Of a stretch of 64,000 nt of DNA, positions 871 to 54,099 are shown piece after piece. The position numbers and the translations under genes were made by a program. The notes under the pieces are model-generated. The model ran no database searches and had not been told where the DNA came from. It was given only the letters and a program-made list of their open reading frames with translations. The number at the start of each line of letters is the position of its first letter. Position 1 is the stretch's first letter. The stretch comes from Octopus vulgaris (taxonomy: Eukaryota), in the NCBI GenBank assembly GCA_951406725.2, contig OX597816.1, positions 58,528,001-58,592,000 on the forward strand. Direction: 5' to 3'.

Positions 871-1040
871 TTCGAATAATTTCTGTTACCTGTTTCAGAA
901 ATATACCAACAGTTTTCTTTCTTACATAAGAAGAAACAAGTTGACGCTTCCCAGAAGATACATTTACAATCATTCGACATGTTGGACCGCTGAAATCTAC
1001 AACTTCTTTTTTCATTCTCTTTCTGTTTGCTTTCACATTC

Positions 1041-1076
1041 CTTTCTGTTGAAGAACGTAGGCTCGAAACGTAAAAG
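1041..1076 (+). ncRNA. Minimal type I hammerhead-like motif in PLE terminal repeat remnant
   Basis: CTTT-CTGTTGAA-GAAC gtag GCTC-GAAA-CG-TA-AAAG; same family at 29885(-) and 50167(+); stem II has one mismatch. Confidence 0.55.
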
Positions 1077-1165
1077 ACATTTTCATTTTTCCGAGTGTCA
1101 AACTAATACACTTGTTTGTTGTTCATAAACCTGTCATCGTCTTTTGTTTCTCAATAAATTTCAAC

Positions 1166-1204
<39 letters not shown>

Positions 1205-1206
<2 letters not shown>

Positions 1207-2013
1207 CAATAATAATTCTCTAAATGAGATATAGACAGTAACTGCTCCATAACATAAGGGACTAAAGCCATCTGAATATGGCTAGGGACAGGGCAGGGTG
1301 GTGGGGGTGTTACTGTTGAATTTAGCCCCAGGCGAACATCAACGTCGCCAGATAGGCTTGACACCATCACGGCGTCCTCTATCCTGCAAAGGGAGATAAT
1401 TCCCCGATGAAGCGGAAACCACACACGGACCTAGGTTTCAAGGTGTTTGCCTATTATCAACGTATGGTAGGCACCCACTTCCTCGACGAACTACTCACTC
1501 TGCAGGATATTTATATAGATTTTCAAGCAAAATACATTTGCTGATTTCGAAAATCTGTTCGACAGCAATAATAATTCTCTAAATGAGATATAGACAGTAA
1601 CTGCTCCATAACATAAGGGACTAAAGCCATCTGAATATGGCTAGGGACAGGGCAGGGTGGTGGGGGTGTTACTGTTGCATTTAGCCCCAGGCGAACATCA
1701 ACGTCGCCAGATAGGCTTGACACCATCACGGCGTCCTCTATCCTGCAAAGGGAGATAATTCCCCGATGAAGCGGAAACCACACACGGACCTAGGTTTCAA
1801 GGTGTTTGTCTATTATCAACGTATGGTAGGCACCCGCTTCCTCGACGAACCACTCACTCTGCAGGATATTTATATAGATTTTCAAGCAAAATACATTTGC
1901 TGATTTCGAAAATCTGTTCGACAGCAATAATAATTCTCTAAATGAGATATAGACAGTAACTGCTCCATAACATAAGGGACTAAAGCCATCTGAATATGGC
2001 TAGGGACAGGGCA
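1205..2013 (+). repeat. Tandem array of 2.25 copies of a highly structured 359-bp unit
   Basis: Units start at 1205, 1564 and 1923; four substitutions seen between units 1 and 2; begins directly after (TA)n. Confidence 0.95.
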
Positions 2014-2032
2014 TGAACAATGGTATGAACAA

Positions 2033-2547
2033 TGGTATGAACACAAGCCAAAGGGAGTAATGGAAAATGACCATTACAATATGCTCTGGGATTTTAAAAT
2101 ACAGTGCGAGACGGTGCGAGATTTTAAAATATAGAGGCGAGACGGCCAGATATCGTGATCATCCATTAAGATGAAAAAGAAGCAAAGATAATAGATGTTG
2201 CAATACTAAGCGATTCGAGGGTGAAATGTAAGGAAACAGAAAAGTGTGAGAATTACCAGCCATAGTGGGACGAAATGGGAAAGCTATGGGGCATAAGGAA
2301 AGTAATGGTGATACCAGTGGTAATTGGAGCATTAGGAACATTTTCTAAGAGTTTTGAAAAACATATTAAGAATATTGGAGCTGCTGTAAGGCTCGAGGTG
2401 ATCCAGAAGATCGCATTGTTTGGTACAGCTCGCATTCTAAGGAGAGTATTGTCTCTGAGTCACTACTTGAAACCTTTGGTGATTTGTTGTTGCCTGCTTT
2501 CAAGTGAAGAACAACAGGTAATTAAGGTCTATCCGATAGTCTTTCAG
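2033..2547 (+). mobile_element. Decayed 3' end of R4/Dong-like RLE non-LTR retrotransposon
   Basis: WYEHKPKGVMEND..MLWDF, RPDIV, and IPVVIGALG...IQKIALFGTARILRRVL; followed by (AAT/AAC)n. Confidence 0.85.
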
Positions 2548-10797: not shown

Positions 10798-11235
10798 TGG
10801 TAAAACGGTAAGATAACAAAAGAAAGAAAGATACCTCAATATTATGTAAATAGAGGAAATTTATCTATAAGATAATATGTTACATTACTTGATAGTCAAG
10901 ATAAAACTCTGAGTTTCAGATGCCGAAGTGGGAATCCACAACTCCATCTCTTCGGTTATCTGGCTATTTGAAAACGCTATGAAAAAATACCGTTATACAA
11001 AGGGAAATTACTGTGTTATAACTCTGCTTGCCTGCGTACTTATACATCGTTATGTAAACGTACACATCTTCACTCGCATTTTTCGCCATAAAAATTATAT
11101 AAAAATACATTAAAAAAATATAAAAAATATATTAAAAAAATATTAAAAAATATACATAAAATATATATAAAAAATATATGATAGAAGGTATGATGAGGTA
11201 AAAAACTTCTTGGGACATAACATAGAAAGCATGTT

Positions 11236-12992
11236 CTATCTGTTTTCTTTAGGGGACCAAAAACGTAACAGAAATTTAGTCACGTGTGGGCATGATCCGA
11301 AAAGTTCTGTCCTTGAGTTTAGACATGTAGTAGGGTCTAAGCTGCTTTTTCAGATAAGCCATCTCTCCATGTCGCATAGACCGCACCTTCCGCTGCCGTT
11401 GGTATAGGGCTTACATTTGGCTAAAATCTTCCAATGTATGTTATAATCGACACCTTTATCTCTTAAAGACCAAATATGATTAAATAATTGTGTCGCTTTT
11501 CTTTTGTTCCAGTGCCTAAAGCTCAAAGTGTGGTTATTGAACCTGGCCTTGAAATTACCCTCTGTGAGGCCCACGTATTTCTTCGTCGAAACGGTGTCTT
11601 TTGTGGTTATAGAGTCTACGGTAGCTTCATATATTATGGTCTTGGACATGCAAGCTCCATTTAGCGGGCACAATTCTTTATACCTGCATGAACAGCTGTT
11701 TTCTTGTAGTGTTTTTTGTATGTTATGTTTGATTATGTTTTTAAAATTGGTAGTGGAACTAAAACTAATTTTTAAATTGTGTCTATTGAAGAGTTTCCTA
11801 TAAGTATGGTTAACTGGAAAATATCTATCTATCAGTGCCAGGAAATATTTACCTATATTGAAGGCCACCTCGGGTGAGTAAGGGGGTGTAAACCAGATGA
11901 CCTTCCTATTTCTATTATTCCTTTTCCTTACTGTTGGGGTAGTAAAGGGTGTATATTTTATTTTTTCGCTAAAACCACTATCTTTTAAAGCCTTATTATA
12001 AACTGGGGCAACGCTATTAAAATGTCCTTATGAGAGGAGAGGCTAGAAATCCTCTTACTAATATTTTAAACTAAATTTTTTAATACTATAGGGGGATGGC
12101 ATGAACCTACATTAATTTAACTTAGTCTATCATTGGGCTTCCTATAAGGCTTATAAATATTCTTATTAAGATCTAAGGAAACGTCTAAGAAATTGACAAC
12201 CGTCAGGTTAGTATCTATAGTTATACTAAGTCCGAAGTATTTCATTAACTGGATAATATCCTTCCTAAAATGATCTTGTGCTGGTCCATTTGTATTAGCT
12301 GTTGAGGCGAGGGCATCATCTTTGTAGATGGCGAAATGTACGTCAGGGAATGTCTTACCTAAGGTATCTGGGAGAAAAAAATCCAATAAGATCGCAAATG
12401 CCTGCCCCATCATATGACCCCATGCTCACATCGAAAGCGCCCTCTGTGTCGGTGTTTTTGACCCACTTTGCGTTCTCACTGAAAAGTAAGTACTTTCTAG
12501 CATGGAAGATTATGTCCTTATCATTTGTACTAATTTCTATGAAGTCGCTAGCGAAGACGAGGGCTTTATCTAGCAGTTCTTTAGAGATAGAGGCATAAAA
12601 ATCAACAATATCGAATTGTGTAAACCTCGCTTTTTTCTTATTCTTAATGGCTTTAAACCAGTCTACGACTTCTATACTATTGGACCATTGTACTAGCCTA
12701 GTATCGGTCTTAATTTTCGCATTTATTTTATCTAAAATTTCTTTACTAATAATCCCAAGTTCTGACTTGGCTGGGTTGATAAGCCTACATTTAGGGTTGG
12801 AAAGGAAGTTCTCTTTGTGATCTTTAATAGTAATAAAGGCCTCTTTTTGGGGGAGGGCTTCTATTTTTTTTTATCTAATTTAAATTTAGCGGCGATGACG
12901 CTAGCCTCTTTATTAATTTCGTTATATGTCTGTGCCCTAACCTTAGTGTAATTATTAATGATGCTGTTGTGTAAGAGTTGTGTGTATTTGCT
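11236..12992 (-). pseudogene. PLE RT + GIY-YIG ORF, frameshifted
   Basis: ORF pieces 12117-12413 and 11350-11868 plus hand translation of the remainder; several frameshifts and an in-frame TGA at 11350-11352. Confidence 0.9.
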
Positions 12993-13064
12993 AGGCAAGC
13001 AGAGTTATAACACAGTAATTTCCCTTTGTATAACGGTATTTTTTCATAGCGTTTTCAAATAGCC

Positions 13065-13127
13065 AGATAACCGAAGAGATGGCGTTGTGGATTTCCACTT
13101 CGGCATCTGAAACTCAGAGTTTTATCT
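13065..13127 (+). ncRNA. Variant hammerhead motif in PLE terminal repeat (copies at 10899-10961(-) and 13999-14061(+))
   Basis: Stem I AGATAA/TTATCT, core CCGAAGA, stem II GATG/CATC, TGAAA, stem III ACTCAGAGT. Confidence 0.65.
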
Positions 13128-13334
13128 TGACTATCGAGTAATGTAACATATTATCTTATAGATAAATTTCCTCTATTTACATAATATTGAGGTCTCTTTC
13201 TTTCTTTTGTTATCTTACCGTTTTACCAATAAATCACCTCCCGGACGACGTTATTCTTAACTAAGAGCTAATACGGCCTTTTTGGATTATCGCCTAACAT
13301 CGGTTGAGGACTCTTACACACAGAAGAATTTAAT

Positions 13335-13767
13335 ATGGATGCATATTATATAGATTATTCTACGAAAAATATACCAATCCCATCAAAGGAATTTTACTCA
13401 AAGAAACTTCTACAGAAAATTACTTATCTGATTAAGCGCATGAGATGGAAGGCTTTCTTTTTTGATACAGAAGCGGACACCACGGAAAACACTTTCTATT
13501 GTATAAAATCCAAAAAATTCCCTCCCAGGATTAAAGGCTTGGAAGATTTCGAAGCGGACTTGCTGAAAATTATGAACAAAATAAAATTTTGTAAGTATTT
13601 TAACAACTTCCAACATAAATTGAAAAAAGATATTAAACATATAAAAAGCTCCAAGAAAAAAACACTTTTTTCGGACAAAACTAAGAACTTATACCTGGTA
13701 GATAACAGCAAATTCACACAACTCTTACACAAACAGCATCATTAATAATTACACTAAGGCTAGGGCA
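13335..13767 (+). pseudogene. PLE ORF N-terminus (inverted segment)
   Basis: 136-aa ORF beginning MDAYYIDYSTKNIPIPS; its last 60 nt or so overlap the start of the minus-strand body. Confidence 0.88.
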
Positions 13768-14095
13768 TCATACCTTCTATCATATATTTTTTATATATAT
13801 TTTATGTATATTTTTTATATTTTTTTAATATATTTTTTATATATTTTTTATGTATTTTTATATAATTTTTATGGCGAAAAATGCGAGTGAAGATGTGTAC
13901 GTTTACATAGCGATGTATAAGTACGCAGGCAAGCAGAGTTATAACACAGTAATTTCCCTTTGCATAACGGTATTTTTTTATAGCGTTTTCAAATAGCCAG
14001 ATAACCGAAGAGATGGCGTTGTGGATCCCCACTTCGGCATCTGAAACTCAGAGTTTTATCTTGACTATCGAGTAATGTAACATATTATCTTATAC

Positions 14096-14158
<63 letters not shown>

Positions 14159-14712: not shown

Positions 14713-14972
14713 TGCATGAGTGGATATCAGAAATTATCCGCACGTTCCCTATAACATATCTGTTTTATTTCCATACTGCCTTCTGCGCATGCGTGCTTAT
14801 AGTTGGTACTATTGTGGTCACGTAATCGAAGTTTGAACCTGATCGCGCCATTTTCTTTCTGGCTTTACAGTGTAAGCATGGCCGCTCCACTAGCAATGTG
14901 CACCAAAGAAGAACAAATGACAGGGATCCGATTTCTCTGGTCGGAAGGTGTGTCAGGTATTAAAATTCATTA
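14713..14972 (+). mobile_element. Mariner 5' fragment (TIR + transposase start)
   Basis: MAAPLAMCTKEEQMTGIRFLWSEGVSG; homologous to 55751-56010. Confidence 0.75.
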
Positions 14973-15149
14973 TAAGGCGGCGGGCTGGCAGAAACGTTAG
15001 CATGCCGGGCGTTAACTCCAGGAAATAGGAGTTGCAATAGATGTAGCAGAAGCAGATAGTATAGCACTGGTATTGCACGGGAGGAGTGGAGAAATGAAAT
15101 TTGACTGAGATAGGATTTGAAGAATCCTATCTCAGTCTATCTACTCTAG

Positions 15150-15330
15150 GCTCAAGGCCCAAAATTTTAGATCGACCTCAGTACGCAACTGGTACTTAAT
15201 TTATCGACCCCAAAAGGATGAAAGGTAAAGTTGACATCGGCGGAATTTGAACTCACAATGTAAAGACAGACGAAGTACCCGCTACGCATTTCGCCCGGCG
15301 TGCTAACGTTTCTACCAGCACGCTGCCTTA
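15150..15330 (-). mobile_element. SINE family B copy
   Basis: Family B reverse complement. Confidence 0.85.
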
Positions 15331-17431: not shown

Positions 17432-17499
17432 GTGAGCACACGCACGCGCACGCACACATACACACACACACACACGCGCGTACACACACACAGACGTAC

Positions 17500-19284
17500 A
17501 AACCTTCTTTGCCCATGTCCAGCGGAATTCCCGCTTGAACAACCAGATTGTAACATTGGTAGACTCAACAGGCGTATCGATTGAGGACCCTTATCAACAG
17601 AGTCAATTATTTGCCGAGGCTTTTTCAACTATTTTCAAACAAGATGATGGTCGTGAACCCCCTCCATTTGATAGATCGGTACCTCCAATGCTTCGATTGA
17701 TCATCACGCGGGACCAAGTCAAACGTGTTATTCAAGGCCTCGATGTCAACAAGGGTCACGGCCCTGACGGCATACACCCACGGGTTATCAAAGCGTTGGC
17801 TCCGGTCATCTGCGAGCCCTTAACACGACTATTCAATATGTCATTGGCGACGGGTGTTATACCTGCAGACTGGAGAACAGCGATAATCTGCCCAATTTTC
17901 AAGAAAGGGAGCCGCTAAGACCCGCTTAACTACCGACCGGTTTCCCTTACATCAATAATCAGCAAGATGTTCGAAACCATCCTTAAGAAAAGTATGATGC
18001 TCCACCTCCTAAGCACAGCCTCGATCACTGATTCCCAACACGGCTTCGTGCCGAAGAGATCATGCTTGACCAACTTACTAGTAATGGAAGAATTGGTGAC
18101 GCGCATCCTCGATGATAGTGATGCTGTTGACATCGTTTTATTGGACTTTGCCAAAGCTTTTGACTCGGTAAACCACCGCCTACTACTTGTCAAGCTTCAA
18201 GCATATAGTTTCCATCCGGATATTGTACGATGGGTTGGTGCCTTCCTCTCAGATCGCTCCTTCCAAGTTCAAGTTAATGGTTCGCGGTCCGACGTCTCCA
18301 GTGCGAGCAGTGGCGTGCCTCAAGGTTCAGTGCTTGGGCCCTTGTTGTTCTTAGTCTTCATAAATGACTTGCCCGACGACCTCACGCAACACACCCTTCT
18401 ATTTGCCGACGATATCAAACTGGTCGCTCCTCGCGGTAGTATAGAGGATCTTCGTCGATGCCTCCACCAAATTTGGAAGTGGTCTAACGATTGGGACCTG
18501 TGTCTGAACGTGTCAAAGTGCTGTCATCTGCCTGTCGGCTCTACTCCTGCAACTCAACTTGATTTCGAGCCGGGTCGTCTGCTGCTGGAGAGGACCGATC
18601 AGGTAAAGGACCTGGGTATCTTGGTGGATTCCTCCTTTTCGCCTTCGGCCCAGTGCGTCCATGCTGCCAACAAAGCGCGCGGAATTCTGTTTTTGATTCG
18701 ACGGTCATTCGGAGTGCTCACAGCAGCCATATTCCTGCCACTCTATGTCACGCTGGTGAGACCCATATTGGAGTATGGGATTCAAGCCTCTTCTCCTTAT
18801 CTCCTCAAAGACATACAGCACCTCGAAAGAGTCCAGAGGCTGGCTACCCGCCTGGTTCATGGTCTCAAAAATTTGTCCTACGAAGAAAGGCTGAGGACGC
18901 TCGACCTTTATTCTCTTGAAAACGCCGCCGCCGTGGTGATCTCATTCTCGCCCACAACATCATAAGCGGGAAGTGTAACCTCTCGAAAGAGCTGTTCTTC
19001 ACTCCTGCTCCGGAGCGTCGGCTGCGGGGTCATTCCGAAAAGCTCTACCTGCGACGATTTCATCTCAATCGAAGGAGAGGAGCTTTCTCCGTCCGGGTTG
19101 CGGATCCGTGGAACAAGCTGCCAGATGAGATGGTGAAGATGCCAACGACCGCTTTGTTCAAAGCCTCCCTGGACCTCAAGTGGCCTGAACTCTTTACATG
19201 AACACCACCCTGTACTTAACTCCATGTCCCCCTACATGGCGTTGCTATTTGCTTTTGAGCCAAATTAACTAACTAACTAACTAA
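17500..19284 (+). mobile_element. 5'-truncated CR1-group LINE (ORF2 RT) with (AACT)n tail
   Basis: GPDGIHP, NYRPVSLT, QHGF, LDFAKAFDSV, GVPQGSVLGP and FADD motifs; stop at 17916 and frameshift at about 18920. Confidence 0.93.
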
Positions 19285-23315: not shown

Positions 23316-23324
23316 AACACCCAA

Positions 23325-23492
23325 TAATTAGATGGTGATGTTAAATCGAATGATGAAGTAAATCTATAATTAGATGGTGATGTTAAATCGAATGATGAAG
23401 TAAATCTATAATTAGATGGTGATGTTAAATCGAATGATGAAGTAAATCTATAATTAGATGGTGATGTTAAATCGAATGATGAAGTAAATCTA
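23325..23492. repeat. Minisatellite, 4 perfect copies of 42 bp
   Basis: TAATTAGATGGTGATGTTAAATCGAATGATGAAGTAAATCTA x4. Confidence 0.95.
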
Positions 23493-24200
23493 TCTCGCAA
23501 AAACTCAAGATGAAAAAACCGGAACAAAGAATTGCAAAGCATCACGCTGGTCCCTCTACCAATTCCGCCTCTCCATCTTTCTGGATCGTTGTTTTTAATT
23601 TATAGACCCCGAACGATGAAAATGAACCTTGATGTGATTTGAACTGCAAATGTAGGTTACCGGAAATAATCCACACAGAATATGTTTGCGCTAACGATCT
23701 GCCAATCTACTGCTTATAACTGTAGATGAATGACCTTTCAGACTGTAATTATTTCCATTTTTAATGAAATGTTTCACTTCATAAAATGTTTAATTAATAA
23801 TCCACTTTTTATGTCATACTGATGATTTCTAAAAGGAATGAAATAGTGCTGTACATGATTACCAACGACGAAATGTTAAAGAACTTCGTACTGAGTAAAG
23901 AGACGTGAATTCTAATGCTCTGTTTCCTTTTGATTCCTTAATTTTAATCTGGCATCGAATTATGGAGAACAGATTATCTCCTTTTTAAGCTGTGATCGTT
24001 AGAGAGATCACGTGTGAGTCAGTTTCTGTCAAAACAGCACCTGGTCCTATTCAGGCCTCCATCCCAATAAACAACTACTATGTGGTTAGTCTAGCGAATT
24101 TAGTCGAATTCCAAACCTCTGCCTTAATAAACAACTAAAACCTTGCAACTAAAATTTTTCTTTTGAACAAAGTTGTGAATTATGCGAGTATCATCATCAC

Positions 24201-29884: not shown

Positions 29885-29920
29885 CTTTAACGTTTCGAGC
29901 CTACGCTCTTCAACAGAAAG
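29885..29920 (-). ncRNA. Minimal hammerhead-like motif in PLE terminal repeat remnant (29760-30030)
   Basis: CTTT-CTGTTGAA-GAGC gtag GCTC-GAAA-CG-TT-AAAG. Confidence 0.6.
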
Positions 29921-33528: not shown

Positions 33529-34086
<558 letters not shown>

Positions 34087-36859
34087 GCGAGGTATGAAAA
34101 GCGTGCTAGATTTTTCAAGGACAACAACATGTTCAAAAATAACACCAAGAATTTTTACAGGAAGATAGGAAAAACAGCGTTTACTGCAGGGTCTGTACCA
34201 TCAAAAGAAGAAGTGCAGAGATTTTGGAATAAAATCTGGGCAGAAGAAAAAACACACAACGAAAAGGCCCCCTGGATTGACAGAATATCTACAGAACTGG
34301 ACCCCTTAGAAGAGCAAAAGTGGGAGGGTGTCAAGGTAGAAGATATAAGATCTGCTCTCAGGAGGTCAAGCAAATGGAAGTCTCCAGGAAAGGATAAAAT
34401 TCCTAACTTCTGGCTGAATGCCTTCCCAGAGAGCCATGAACTGCTAACAGAACTGTACAATGATGTTTTGCAACACCCTAGTAGGATGCCTCCTTGGCTA
34501 GTTAATGGGTTAACATTCCTGCTTCCAAAAAGTGAAGAAACAAATGAACCAAAAAACTATAGACCCATAACTTGCTTAACAACTATGTACAAAACACTAA
34601 CATCTGTCCTGACGGAATATACCTATAGTTTTTTAACAGACAGCAGCATATTCCCTAATGAACAGAAAGGATGTAAACGTGGATCCTACGGCTGTAAAGA
34701 CCAACTACTCATCAATAAGATGATCTTAGAAGATTGTCACAAACGACACAAAAACTTATCAATAGCCTGGATAGACTATAAAAAGGCTTTTGATAGCCTA
34801 CCACATAGCTGGATTAGAAAATGCCTTGAAATGTATAAGATAGCACCAACTCTGCGAAACTTCTTGACTGTAAGTATGAGATCATGGAGAACCACACTAA
34901 CTCTGAACAGTGACAGTGAATTCCTAAATGCTGGTGATGTAAAAATTTCGTGTGGCATTTTCCAGGGTGACTCACTGTCACCACTCCTCTTTTGTTTATC
35001 CTTAATACCTCTCTCAAAGCTGCTCAATGACGCGCAGTACGGGTATAAAATGTTTGATAAAAATATAAATCATCTCGTTTACATGGATGATTTAAAGCTT
35101 TTTGCAAAAAATGATCAACAACTCAAGGGCTTACTAGCGATAGTCAAACAATTCAGTGACGACATCAGAATGCAATTCGGCCTCGATAAATGTGCAAAGG
35201 CTACCTTTATCAAAGGAAAAATGACAGAAACATCTAACGTTAACCTTGACCAACAGAATGTCATAAAAGAACTAGACCCAGCGGAGAGCTACAAGTACCT
35301 AGGGATAATTGAAGGGAACGGAATAAGGCATTCAGAGATGAAGGAAAGGATCAGGAGAGAATGCTATCGAAGAGTGAGAGCAATACTCAAGACAGAGCTG
35401 AATGCAAGAAACAGGATCGAAGCAATCAATGCATTAGCTATACCAGTCGTGACTTACAGTTTCAATATTGTTAACTGGTCAATTACTGAAATATGTCAGC
35501 TCGACAGAAAAATAAGGAAACTGTTGACAATGCATAGAATGCACCACCCTAAGGCAGATACAGAACGACTCTATCTGCCAAGAAAAGAGGGAGGCCGTGG
35601 TCTTTTGCAACTGGCAATAACAATGAAGATTGCTACAATTGGCCTAGACACCTACCTGAAAAACTCTGAGGACTGGATGCTAAAACTTGTCTCAAAACAT
35701 GAAAACAAGAAAGCATCATACTCAGTCACAAAACAGGCAAAGGAATATCTAAGTGAATTCCGAATACAACCAATTTCGGAGATAGATATACAAGAAACAA
35801 GCACAGAAAAAGCTAGGCGCATGAAAACCCGTGCCAAAACTGCGGCCTTAGATATTCTGAATAATAAATGGCAAGAAAAACCTCTCTATGGCAAATACCC
35901 AAAGAGAGCGAATAATGCAGATATCGACAAAGCCCTGACCCATCAATGGCTAATGGCCTCTGGCTTAAAATCTGAAACAGAGGGGTTTATCATAGCAGCT
36001 CAAGATCAATGCCTACCAACAAGAAACTACCAGGCCAACATATTAAAGATCAGAAGCAGTCCAACGTGTCGTGTATGCAAGCAACAAAATGAAACCATTG
36101 ACCATGTGGTCTCCAAGTGCAGTCTTCTAGCGCCTACAGAGTATCTCAACAGGCACGATAGAGCTGCACAATATATTCACTGGGTAATCTGTAAAAACCT
36201 GGATTTGCCCCATGAAAAAAACTGGTGGGAACACAAACCACCCCAGTGCTTGAAAATGACCACATCTCACTCCTCTGGAACTTCACCATTCAAACTGACA
36301 GGAAGATAGATGCAAATAGGCCAGACATCATATTGAAAAACTTCAAACAAAGAACATGCCTCCTCATTGATATGACAGTCCCAATCGATATAAACGTATC
36401 TGTCAAGACCTACCAAAAACTGAGCAAATATAAAGATCTTGAAATAGAAATCAGCAAAATGTGGAAGCTGAAGACTAAAACAATACCTGTTGTCATAGGT
36501 GCCCTGGGAATGATAGCAAAAGGGGCTGATAGCTACCTAACTCAGATACCAGGAAACCCAAAAATGGCAGAAGTTCAAAAGATAGTGCTCATGGGAACTG
36601 CTCATATCCTACGCAAAATACTCTCTATGTAATCTCAAGGTTTAAAACAAACATAATTTTCGGTTTAAAAAAAAAAAAAAAAAAAAAAAACCTTTTTTTT
36701 TTTTTCTTTTTAGACATTCATTAGTACAACATCCCCACCCCCCAAATATATGGCACACTAGGCATAACAACAACATGAACTTCCAACCCTGTTGTCTCTT
36801 GAGGTCTCTGGGTGAGACTTGGAGCCAACTTGTACAAATATAAAGCAAAAGTCAAACAT
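34087..36859 (+). mobile_element. 5'-truncated R4/Dong RLE retrotransposon family X (RT + CCHC + RLE)
   Basis: SPGKD, NYRPITCL, WIDYKKAFDS, GIFQGDSLSP, YMDD, CRVC..HVVSKC, RHD and RPD..LID motifs; one frameshift at about 36240; flanked by (TAA)n. Confidence 0.95.
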
Positions 36860-36860
36860 A

Positions 36861-37362: not shown

Positions 37363-39405
37363 CAGTAGTTTTATTTTTATTTTTATAGCGTGCTTTCACT
37401 TCACTACCGAGCACAGCTCTGTGTGCCTTGGGTTTGTGCTGTGATTTGTTGTGATGCTCTGATGGTTATTGTATGGAAAGTGTTCTGCGTAGGATGTGTG
37501 CAGTGCCCAGTAGTGCAATTTTCTGTATGTTATATGTGTTTGTAAGTCCTGGTGTTTTTGTTATGTATTTGTCTGAATATTTTTTTATCATGCCTAATGC
37601 ACCTACTATGATAGGAATTGTTTCTGTTTTCAGATTCCACATTCTAGTTACCTCTATTTCCAGGTCTTTGTATTTTGAGAGTTTCTCCATTTCTTTTAGA
37701 GACACGTTGTCATCTGCCGGTACTGATACATCAATTAGAAAGCATTTTTTTCTTCATGGTCTCTGACAACTATATCTGGTCTGTTGGCCTTAATTTCTCT
37801 ATCTGTGTGTATCGGCATATCCCAGAGTATGGTTGCTTTCTCGTTTTCTGTGACCTTTTCTGGTGTGTGCCTATACCATCTTTTTTCTGTTGTTATTCCA
37901 TAATGTTGGCATAGCTTCCAATGTATGTAAGTTCCAACTCTGTCATGTCTGTGAATATATTCCTTCTTAGCCAGGACTGGGCAGCTAGAGATAATATGAT
38001 TTATTGTTTCTTGTCCATCTCCACATATTCTGCAGTTACTTGTAATATTTCTTTTCATTACATGTTTTTGGTAATTTCTGGTGGGGAGGCTTTGGTCTTG
38101 TGCTGCAATTAAAAATCCCTCTGTTTCTGCTTTGAGTCCTGAGCTTCTCAACCATTGCTGGGATTTTTCTTTGTCTATTTCTTTTGCGTTTAGTTTAGTC
38201 CAGTATTTACCATGAAGGGGCTTTTCTTGCCATCGTTTTATCATGGTTCTTTGCTGTTCTATTTTTAGTTTGGATTTCATTTTTTTTATAGCTTTTGTTG
38301 TTTCTTCATCTTCTTCTTCTTCTTCATGTTTATTAGGTGGTATGATTTCTTGTTTGTATTTGTCAGCTTCCTTAAATACTGAGAACAGTTTTTTGTTTTG
38401 CTCGTGTTTTGCCGCTATCTGGATCAGTTTTCCTTCCTTCTGAAGTAGATATTTTTGCAGTCCTATGGTGGTTATTTTATAGTAGTTTTCCAGCTGTATA
38501 AGGCCTCTACCACCTTCTATACGTTGTATATATAGTCTTTCTATGTCAGATTTTGGGTGATGCATCCTAGATCCTGTCATTATTTTTCTTGTTTTCCTGT
38601 CTATTTTGGTCAGTTCATTTCGTGTCCAGTTAAGGATATTGTAGCTGTAACTTATAACTGGGACAGCTAAAGTGTTGATACCTATTATCTTGTTTTTAGC
38701 ATTGAGCTCTGTGTTTAGTATTGATCTAACTCGTCTATAATATTCTTTTTTTATTTTCTCTTTCATTTGTGTGTGTTGTGTCTTATCTAGTTCATGGATT
38801 CCTAAGTATTTGTAAGTTTGGCTTTGGTCTAATTCTTTTATTTCATTTGCTTCATCTAGTGTGATGTTGTTACTCTTAACTAGTTTTCCTCTTTTCATGG
38901 TTACTTTGGCGCATTTTTCTAATCCAAATTTCATATCTATTTCTTTGGTAAATCCATGAACTGTCTTTAATAGTGTTTCCAGCTGTTTGTCATTTGCAGC
39001 GTATAGTTTTAGGTCATCCATATATAAAAGGTGGCTGATCGTTTGGCCGTAACATTTATATCCGCATCCAGTTCTATTTAGCATATCAGATAGAGGTGAC
39101 AGTGCCAAGCAGAAAAGGAGTGGAGAGAGCGTATCTCCCTGGAATATTCCTCTTCTAATGGGGATGTCTTTTGTTTTCATGAGTCCCTCTTTTGTTTGGA
39201 GGTGTAGGACTGTTTGCCATTTATTCATAGAGTGCTCTATGAATTTTATGATTGTTGGTGCTACTTTGTTAATGGCTAGTGTTTCGAGGATCCATGTGTG
39301 GTGGATGCTATCAAACGCCTTTTTGTAGTCAATCCAGGCCATACTGAGGCCTTTCTTCTTTCTGTGGCTGTCTTCAGTTATGGCTTTATTAATCATTAGT
39401 TGATC

Positions 39406-42422: not shown

Positions 42423-42516
<94 letters not shown>

Positions 42517-42550
42517 GTGTGTGTGTGTATGTATATATACATGCACATAT

Positions 42551-43626
42551 ATCCGGATATTGTACGATGGGTTGGTGCCTTCCTCTCAGATCGCTCCTTC
42601 CAAGTTCAAGTTAATGGTTCGTGGTCCGACGTCTCCAGTGCGAGCAGTGGCGTGCCTCAAGGTTCAGTGCTTGGGCCCTTGTTGTTCTTAGTCTTCATAA
42701 ATGACTTGCCCGACGACCTCACGCAACACACCCTTCTATTTGCCGACGATATCAAACTGGTCGCTCCTCGCGGTAGTATAGAGGATCTTCGTCGATGCCT
42801 CCACCAAATTTGGAAGTGGTCTAACGATTGGGACCTGTGTCTGAACGTGTCAAAGTGCTGTCATCTGCCTGTCGGCTCTACTCCTGCAACTCAACTTGAT
42901 TTCGAGCCGGGTCGTCTGCTGCTGGAGAGGACCGATCAGGTAAAGGACCTGGGTATCTTGGTGGATTCCTCCTTTTCGCCTTCGGCCCAGTGCGTCCATG
43001 CTGCCAACAAAGCGCGCGGAAATCTGTTTTTGATTCGACGGTCATTCGGAATGCTCACAGCAGCCATATTCCTACCACTCTATGTCACGCTGGTGAGACC
43101 CATATTGGAGTATGGGATTCAAGCCTCTTCTCCTTATCTCCTCAAAGACATACAGCATCTCGAAAGAGTCCAGAGGCTGGCTACCCGCATGGTTCATGGT
43201 CTCAAAAATTTGTCCTACGAAGAAAGGCTGAGGACGCTCGACCTTTATTCTCTTGAAAAACGCCGCCGCCGTGGTGATCTCATTCTCGCCCACAACATCA
43301 TAAGCGGGAAGTGTAACCTCTCGAAAGAGCTGTTCTTCACTCCTGCTCCGGAGGGTCGGCTGCGGGGTCATTCCGAAAAGCTCTACCTGCGACGATTTCA
43401 TCTCAATCGAAGGAGAGGAGCTTTCTCCGTCCGGGTTGCGGATCCGTGGAACAAGCTGCCAGACGAGATGGTGAAGATGCCGACGACCGCTTTGTTCAAA
43501 GCCTCCCTGGACCTCAAGTGGCCTGAACCCTTTATATGAACACCACCCTGTACTTAACTCCATGTCCCCCTACATGGCGTTGCTATTTGCTTTTGAGCCA
43601 AATTAACTAACTAACTAACTAACTAA
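42551..43626 (+). mobile_element. Second 5'-truncated copy of the CR1-group LINE
   Basis: About 99% identical (by eye) to 18214-19284; open frame to TGA at 43539; (AACT)n tail. Confidence 0.95.
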
Positions 43627-53652: not shown

Positions 53653-54099
53653 GACCGAAATGCATTGCGAAGAAGTCCACCATTTTCATAGATATGTAAA
53701 AATAAACATTCGTACATGCTGCGGCGAATTCTACGGTTGGCTGTCGGGTATGTAATGTTGTGTTTTTTCTTATATGTCTTGAGTTCGTTGCACTGAAGAG
53801 CATAGAATGCATATTCTGCATTGATTGCGAAATCACAGGTGATATGTAACTAAATTCTGTTTTTAAATGACTTGCTTTGAAGTTTTGCATTCGGTACAAT
53901 TTGTTTATTTTAGAAGTTTTGACTGCAAAAGTCCCTCCTAGCGTGCGGTACCTATGAATAATAGTACCCTCTATATAATATAAAAAAATATTTTCAAAGT
54001 GGAAAAATTTACAGATTTTTTCTCTTAGAGGTTTTTCACGCTAACTACTGATAATTTCTTATAAAGATTTTATCCTTAATTTTAAATATATATATATAT

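Follow-up and report, generated by a model that had tools for sequence, protein, structure and literature searches.

Within the window, that is, the whole 64-kb stretch of DNA analysed here, a retrozyme-like tandem array characterised by its period, fold and hammerhead position occupies positions 1205..2013 on the minus strand and consists of 2.25 head-to-tail copies of a 359-bp unit with a GC content of 45%. Tandem Repeats Finder, run on the window, reported 1205-2013 with a period of 359, 2.3 copies and 99% matches. Read on the minus strand, the array has its 5' end at 2013 and its 3' end at 1205-1206, and the 359-nt periodicity ends sharply at both 1205 and 2013. Copies 1 and 2 differ at four positions (1319/1678, 1450/1809, 1477/1836 and 1492/1851), which corresponds to a divergence of 1.1%, and the third, partial copy of 91 nt shows no differences. 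Repeat finding and copy comparison are thus in agreement with the 2.25 copies, the period of 359, the four differences and the start at a (TA)n tract described in the first-pass annotation. The presence of 2.25 copies with an identical 91-nt third copy argues against any single simple duplication as their source. No further copies of the unit were found elsewhere in the 64-kb window. A coding role of the unit was rejected: its open frame of 88 codons (1526-1789) yielded a single candidate, which did not score, and had no Pfam or database match. Also rejected were a prokaryotic or phage origin (no matches in prokaryotic genome contigs and only two chance matches of 30-33 bp in phages), a tRNA-type SINE identity (strict A and B boxes being absent from both strands) and an autonomous Penelope-like element (no ORF for reverse transcriptase plus GIY-YIG inside or beside the array). 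Group I intron, SECIS, HDV-like, twister, pistol and hairpin motifs gave no convincing fit when their consensus was compared by eye.

Type I hammerheads were searched on both strands of the window with a descriptor that allowed all four Watson-Crick pairs at core positions 3-8 and placed no requirement on loop II or internal-loop residues. The scan returned three motifs in which helix III was short or palindromic, two of which are those of the array, on the minus strand: copy 1 at 1422..1466 and copy 2 at 1781..1825. The first-pass annotation had found no intact hammerhead in the unit, whereas the descriptor scan places one in each full unit; as that annotation had chosen the plus strand, the ribozyme on the minus strand was missed. 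Both hammerheads read, in order, CAUACG, UUGAUAA, UAGRCAAACACCUU, GAAACCUAGGUC and CGUGUG. In copy 1, helix I comprises 6 bp (CAUACG, 1466-1461, with CGUGUG, 1427-1422; pair probability 0.82-0.97), the core is UUGAUAA (1460-1454) with U3-A8 replacing C3-G8, helix II consists of a basal U.U followed by AGG/CCU and closes with the loop CAAACA (1449-1444), and the 3' core and helix III read GAAAC-CUAG-GUC (1439-1428), helix III being palindromic. Copy 2 has the same anatomy, except that at 1809 a G-C of helix II has become A.C, which breaks a pair of that helix. The boxes CUGANGA, GAAA and UH follow each other in order around a three-way junction with helix I open, and all core positions are canonical except U3 and A8, which form one compensating pair. 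Next to helix I, internal loop 1 has CUAC (1470-1467) on its 5' side and U at 1421 on its 3' side, and the contact residues of the Schistosoma hammerhead, IL1.U1, IL1.C8 and L2.A6, are all present by sequence. Cuts are predicted after GUC, between 1428 and 1427 in copy 1 and between 1787 and 1786 in copy 2. These sites lie exactly 359 nt apart and delimit a predicted monomer (1428..1786, minus strand) of 359 nt with a circular fold of -116.8 kcal/mol.

In 20,000 dinucleotide shuffles of the unit, circularised and scanned on both strands, the 3-8 core rule yielded any motif in 14 cases, one with a helix I of at least 6 bp and none that also had a palindromic helix III. When any single change in the core was accepted, the corresponding counts in 20,000 shuffles were 81, 14 and 0. 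The array has hammerhead ribozyme anatomy, of which we have very little doubt. Rfam gave no match at gathering score in the window, nine weak unrelated matches in a scan of 850-2600 and none in a scan of 1400-1490; none of them was a hammerhead. A canonical-core motif at 53787 likewise escaped Rfam, whose negative result therefore has little weight. The latter motif (53787-53850, plus strand) is type I hammerhead-like, with a CUGAAGA core, a 6-bp helix I, a long helix II and a stable helix III, sits between two microsatellite tracts and has no Rfam hammerhead match. On the plus strand of the unit, only the boxes CCGAUGA..GAAAC at 1404 were found, without helices, and hence no complete ribozyme on both strands. 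These boxes (CCGATGA..GAAAC at 1404-1419 and 1763-1778) face the minus-strand ribozyme and lack helices I and II; since such boxes occur in 1,528 of 20,000 shuffles (7.6%), they are probably due to chance. A two-polarity viroid-like RNA was rejected for lack of a full plus-strand ribozyme, the descriptor covering hammerheads and Rfam the other classes.

The folding of the unit likewise points to the minus strand. The minus-strand unit reached a minimum free energy (MFE) of -119.7 kcal/mol (z -4.56) and the plus-strand unit -106.9 kcal/mol (z -3.57), with none of 100 shuffles as good in either case. Over both copies, linear and circular, z ranged from -4.9 to -6.0 on the minus as compared to -2.5 to -3.3 on the plus strand, the circular minus-strand folds giving -4.9 and -5.1, and none of 60 shuffles was as stable in any of the eight folds of copies, strands and topologies. 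The minus strand moreover has more confident G-U pairs (10-11 vs 5-8) and a lower ensemble diversity, contrary to the first-pass statement that G-U pairs favour the plus strand. Energy, G-U count and ribozyme position together rule out a plus-strand RNA model. The description of the unit as mostly paired holds, with about 60% of its bases paired in the predicted fold. The 11 helix arm pairs listed earlier all occur in at least one copy, with two of them confined to copy 2 and one to copy 1; the arms of GACAC/GCGTC are present, but form an A.C mismatch on the plus strand and a G-U pair on the minus strand. Of the plus-strand pairings, GAAACC/GGTTTC and TGCCTATTAT/ATGGTAGGCA were set aside as folds of the ribozyme antisense; on the minus strand, adopting the GAAACC/GGUUUC conformer costs about 9 kcal/mol. 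As controls, 22 segments free of microsatellites were picked randomly from the remainder of the window; compared to 15 shuffles each, they had a median z of -0.85 on the better strand, with two of them below -5; folding alone is modest evidence and not unique within the window. These two are 14907-15265 and 35370-35728, with minus-strand z of -6.2 and -5.4 (15 shuffles each), the second lying inside LINE coding sequence.

Helix I of the hammerhead has a pair probability of 0.82-0.98 when the circle is included and is extended by a long rod (1380..1509, minus strand), the domain counting 52 pairs and -61.8 kcal/mol. In the nearest-neighbour model, which does not count tertiary contacts and magnesium, the active hammerhead fold lies 5.5 and 5.2 kcal/mol above the local misfold, and its penalty in the circle is 6.2 kcal/mol within the same scope, again exclusive of tertiary contacts; the canonical-core motif at 53787 pays 2.6 kcal/mol for its active fold. 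Helix III contributes +1.3 kcal/mol as an intramolecular hairpin vs -12.8 kcal/mol as a duplex of two copies, the palindrome ACCUAGGU (1429..1436, with a second copy at 1788-1795, minus strand) allowing an 8-bp helix between the two hammerheads. Over the complete minus-strand transcript, folding as a double hammerhead was 4.4 kcal/mol better than two singles and 8.3 kcal/mol above the free ensemble. Self-cleavage by the copy 1 hammerhead would have about an even chance.

The 3' end of the array abuts a (TA)n tract (1166/1170..1205), A1205 being common to tract and unit. This tract is likely the target or priming site of the array. Positions no more than 2 nt from a (TA)n end make up only 0.8% of the window. 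The array 3' end is located 222 nt past a cut site; hence the template would not have been a cut linear monomer, and a circle or an uncut multimer fits. Five of the eight checked copies of a frequent SINE-like repeat likewise pass into TATA, so the (TA)n tract does not single out Penelope. No target-site duplication of the array is visible, its 3' end being at a microsatellite and its 5' end fused to a LINE piece. Beyond the tract, the end of a different dispersed repeat (1015..1165, plus strand), outside the array, meets the latter tail-to-tail at the common (TA)n and contains a minimal hammerhead-like motif with the core CUGUUGA at 1045, which has relatives at 29916, 50171 and 19647. This is the motif (1041-1076) that had been taken for the nearest hammerhead on the same strand; it lies on the plus strand, that of the unit on the minus strand, and it derives from the other repeat. 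The minimal motifs at 1045 (plus), 29916 (minus), 50171 (plus) and 19647 (plus) all end in GAAACGTH, and three of the four have U for the conserved A6 (CTGTYGA), while the fourth is canonical (CTGAAGA); the shared change appears to be characteristic of a family, not the outcome of separate decay. An alignment of five hammerhead-like segments was uninformative.

On the other side, the array is followed by the 3' end of a decayed non-LTR retrotransposon (2014..2547, plus strand), which carries stops and a frameshift, terminates with an (AAC)n(AAT)n tract and matches the C-terminal region of the element at 33928-36632 (E 4e-19); it is related to the reverse transcriptase elements at 33928 and 39405. 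An imperfect duplication of about 30 bp within it (2090-2150) shifts its frame. Array and LINE fragment are joined head-to-head in opposite orientation, with a 12-bp tandem duplication at 2013-2043. Neither of the two has its expected flank at 2013/2014, which suggests deletion or imprecise integration, and the original array may have been longer than it is now. The unit as 5' UTR or (AAT)-tailed SINE of this LINE was rejected in view of the opposite strand of the ribozyme. Further retroelements in the window include two 5'-truncated non-LTR retrotransposons (33928-36860, plus; 37400-39405, minus) with proteins 50% identical, each beginning directly at (TAA)n, the first of which retains an open reverse transcriptase frame of 738 codons; we take the elements at 33928 and 39405 to be R4/Dong-like with a restriction-like endonuclease. 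Two near-identical LINE fragments encoding reverse transcriptase are present at 17436-19201 and 42424-43539 (plus), with Pfam RVT_1 detected in the first.

A Penelope-like element was recognised at 10798-14098, with pieces of its ORF lying on the minus strand, a GIY-YIG match too weak for the Pfam cut-off (E 0.01), 334-bp inverted terminal repeats (10862-11195 / 14098-13766, 97%) and (TA)n at both ends. Within its terminal repeat there is a hammerhead-like motif whose core carries U4C (CCGAAGA at 10955, minus). Comparison of the unit with five Penelope-type ends revealed no sequence likeness (best E 0.084), and the protein fragments of the element at 10798-14098 gave no match to the unit. As described in the accessible text of PMC8557442, Penelope-like elements show a (TA)n bias, have tandem or inverted ends and insert as partial tandems.

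Non-LTR retrozymes consist of at least two consecutive head-to-tail units of roughly 150-450 bp, each with a type I hammerhead; the array has two full units of 359 bp, helix II of copy 2 being weakened. It resembles in this respect the metazoan non-LTR retrozymes of coral, mussel and axolotl, which are tandem units of a few hundred bases with one type I hammerhead each and measure 350-390 in mussel and 330 and 350 in axolotl (PMC7229834). Furthermore, a GC content below 50% (0.45 in the unit), a stable self-paired monomer, predicted as a circle, and the lack of a coding role are common to both (PMC7229834). The canonical metazoan type I motif has a helix I of 6 bp, a helix II of 4 bp and a helix III of 1-2 bp with a palindromic loop, and is active as a dimer (PMC4209133); the array shares the 6-bp helix I and the short helix III with palindromic loop. 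The features of helices II and III are also like those of the axolotl HHR_Amex2, in which a 2-bp helix III carries a tetraloop and helix II has a basal U.U (PMC7229834). A preprint on vertebrate non-LTR retrozymes applies the rule of two consecutive type I units with a motif MFE below -5 kcal/mol (bioRxiv 10.64898/2026.07.22.740005), and the array hammerheads have motif MFEs of -8.8 and -5.5 kcal/mol, these MFE folds being other than the hammerhead fold.

The variant core also has precedents. Covariation of C3-G8 to U3-A8 occurs in several natural hammerheads, with activity in vitro stated as shown (PMC3088659), and approximately 1,300 U3-A8 motifs, mostly single, were found in Schistosoma via the Cercyon Penelope-like element (PMC4209133). 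The array shares with the minimal Cercyon hammerheads of Schistosoma mansoni the core covariation, the type I topology and a Penelope context; unlike these mostly single motifs, its hammerhead possesses a genuine helix III closed by a palindromic tetraloop, shows contact residues of the Schistosoma type and stands in tandem (PMC4209133). The full-length type I hammerhead of Schistosoma mansoni has the loop 2 CAAAUA and the contact triad IL1.U1, IL1.C8 and L2.A6 (PMC2632901). The array shares with it U1 and C8 in internal loop 1 as well as a loop II CAAAYA with its 3' A, but differs from it in the swapped core pair and in a shorter helix II with the basal U.U. In contrast to the metazoan retrozymes of PMC7229834, whose main text, as far as accessible, does not mention such a core, the array has U3-A8. 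Retrozyme class and U3-A8 core are thus each known; their combination in a tandem retrozyme of full architecture, to judge from sequence, appears not to have been described in the literature searched. That literature, including the accessible text of PMC7761336 and PMC8490949, contained no U3-A8 tandem retrozyme and no cephalopod retrozyme, although the supplements of PMC7229834 and the preprint could include such cases. The preprint surveyed 31 vertebrates, three insects and one coral with canonical and minimal models, and its accessible text does not state whether U3-A8 was allowed (bioRxiv 10.64898/2026.07.22.740005).

On the best explanation, the array is probably the genomic copy of a retrozyme of the metazoan non-LTR class, with a compensated U3-A8 core in its type I hammerhead. 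The type I hammerhead in both full units supports the first-pass guess of a non-LTR retrozyme-like, retro-copied circular or multimeric RNA, while its choice of strand and its association of the unit with the upstream hammerhead were mistaken; that a circle was copied and that a Penelope-like element mobilised it we still infer. A Penelope-driven rolling-circle origin is plausible. Following what is known of the family, the minus-strand transcript would cut itself after GUC at both sites, the two ribozymes most likely being paired via the ACCUAGGU palindrome as a double hammerhead during cutting, and the 359-nt monomer would be closed into a circle by a host RtcB-type ligase. Less firmly, a Penelope-like reverse transcriptase with GIY-YIG endonuclease may have nicked the (TA)n tract, and priming on a circle or multimer away from the cut site may have been followed by more than two rounds of copying. 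The 5' end of the array would have been fused, later or at once, to the older decayed LINE fragment. The fact that only one of nine predicted Xenopus retrozyme dimers cleaved (bioRxiv 10.64898/2026.07.22.740005) calls for caution on the prior for activity.

We consider it unlikely that the repeats are instead pLTRs, terminal repeats in tandem, of a Penelope-like element that lost its 5' part, having inserted with the RNA of that parent and belonging to no free-standing retrozyme family. U3-A8 is known from the hammerheads of the Schistosoma Cercyon Penelope-like elements (PMC4209133), Penelope-like elements insert as partial tandems (PMC8557442), retrozymes are derived from pLTRs in the preprint (bioRxiv 10.64898/2026.07.22.740005), and the distance of the array hammerhead from (TA)n, 255 nt, falls among the 113-293 nt of the other hammerhead-like ends in the window. 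However, the array hammerhead is of the full, tertiary-contact type, unlike the minimal pLTR type, and neither the protein pieces nor the terminal repeat of the window's Penelope-like element finds anything in the unit. Quite improbable is the amplification in place of a single hammerhead-bearing insertion at the DNA level, by unequal exchange or as the birth of a satellite, without rolling-circle copying. Local amplification is offered as a route in the preprint (bioRxiv 10.64898/2026.07.22.740005), only one locus is present within the 64-kb window and the 5' junction resembles a repair scar; against this, a one-step duplication yields 2.0 copies, not 2.25 with 91 identical nt, and a palindrome in helix III would be meaningful only where copies stand in tandem or pair with each other. 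We regard as very improbable that the reverse transcriptase of the adjacent LINE copied the RNA via template switching, giving a LINE-retrozyme chimera: the direct 2013/2014 junction with its 12-bp duplication and the lack, in the LINE fragment, of the (TAA)n 5' flank of the two related window elements would fit, but array and LINE are head-to-head on opposite strands, and their ages look different given the stops and frameshift of the LINE as compared to the 1.1% divergence of the array. A chance-folding tandem duplication without ribozyme is hardly credible, since despite the silence of Rfam and two of 22 control windows lying as far below their own shuffles, the motif occurred in none of 20,000 shuffles under either core rule and the loop and internal-loop residues, which had not been requested, also match.

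By its retroelements the host is an animal, and among 120 listed protein matches two were Penaeus proteins. It is possible, though short of probable, that the array represents one copy of an active, undescribed U3-A8 retrozyme family, probably of a cephalopod, overlooked by CUGANGA-based surveys and Rfam, the copies of which would end at (TA)n at many points of the circle. Such varied (TA)n end points would provide junction-level evidence for target-primed rolling-circle copying by Penelope-like elements, which has so far only been proposed. The variant core was missed by the first-pass annotation and by three Rfam scans, which indicates a blind spot for U3-A8, and were variant-core retrozymes common, counts of self-cleaving circular RNAs in animals would be too low. 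Moreover, the clean 3' junction at (TA)n, off the cut site, would be a direct handle on which autonomous element moves retrozyme RNAs, a question described as open in the accessible text of PMC7229834 and bioRxiv 10.64898/2026.07.22.740005. The array may also serve as a natural case for asking whether U3-A8 together with a weak helix III ties cleavage to dimers. As for other tandem repeats in the window, a perfect 42-bp repeat is present in four copies at 23324-23493.
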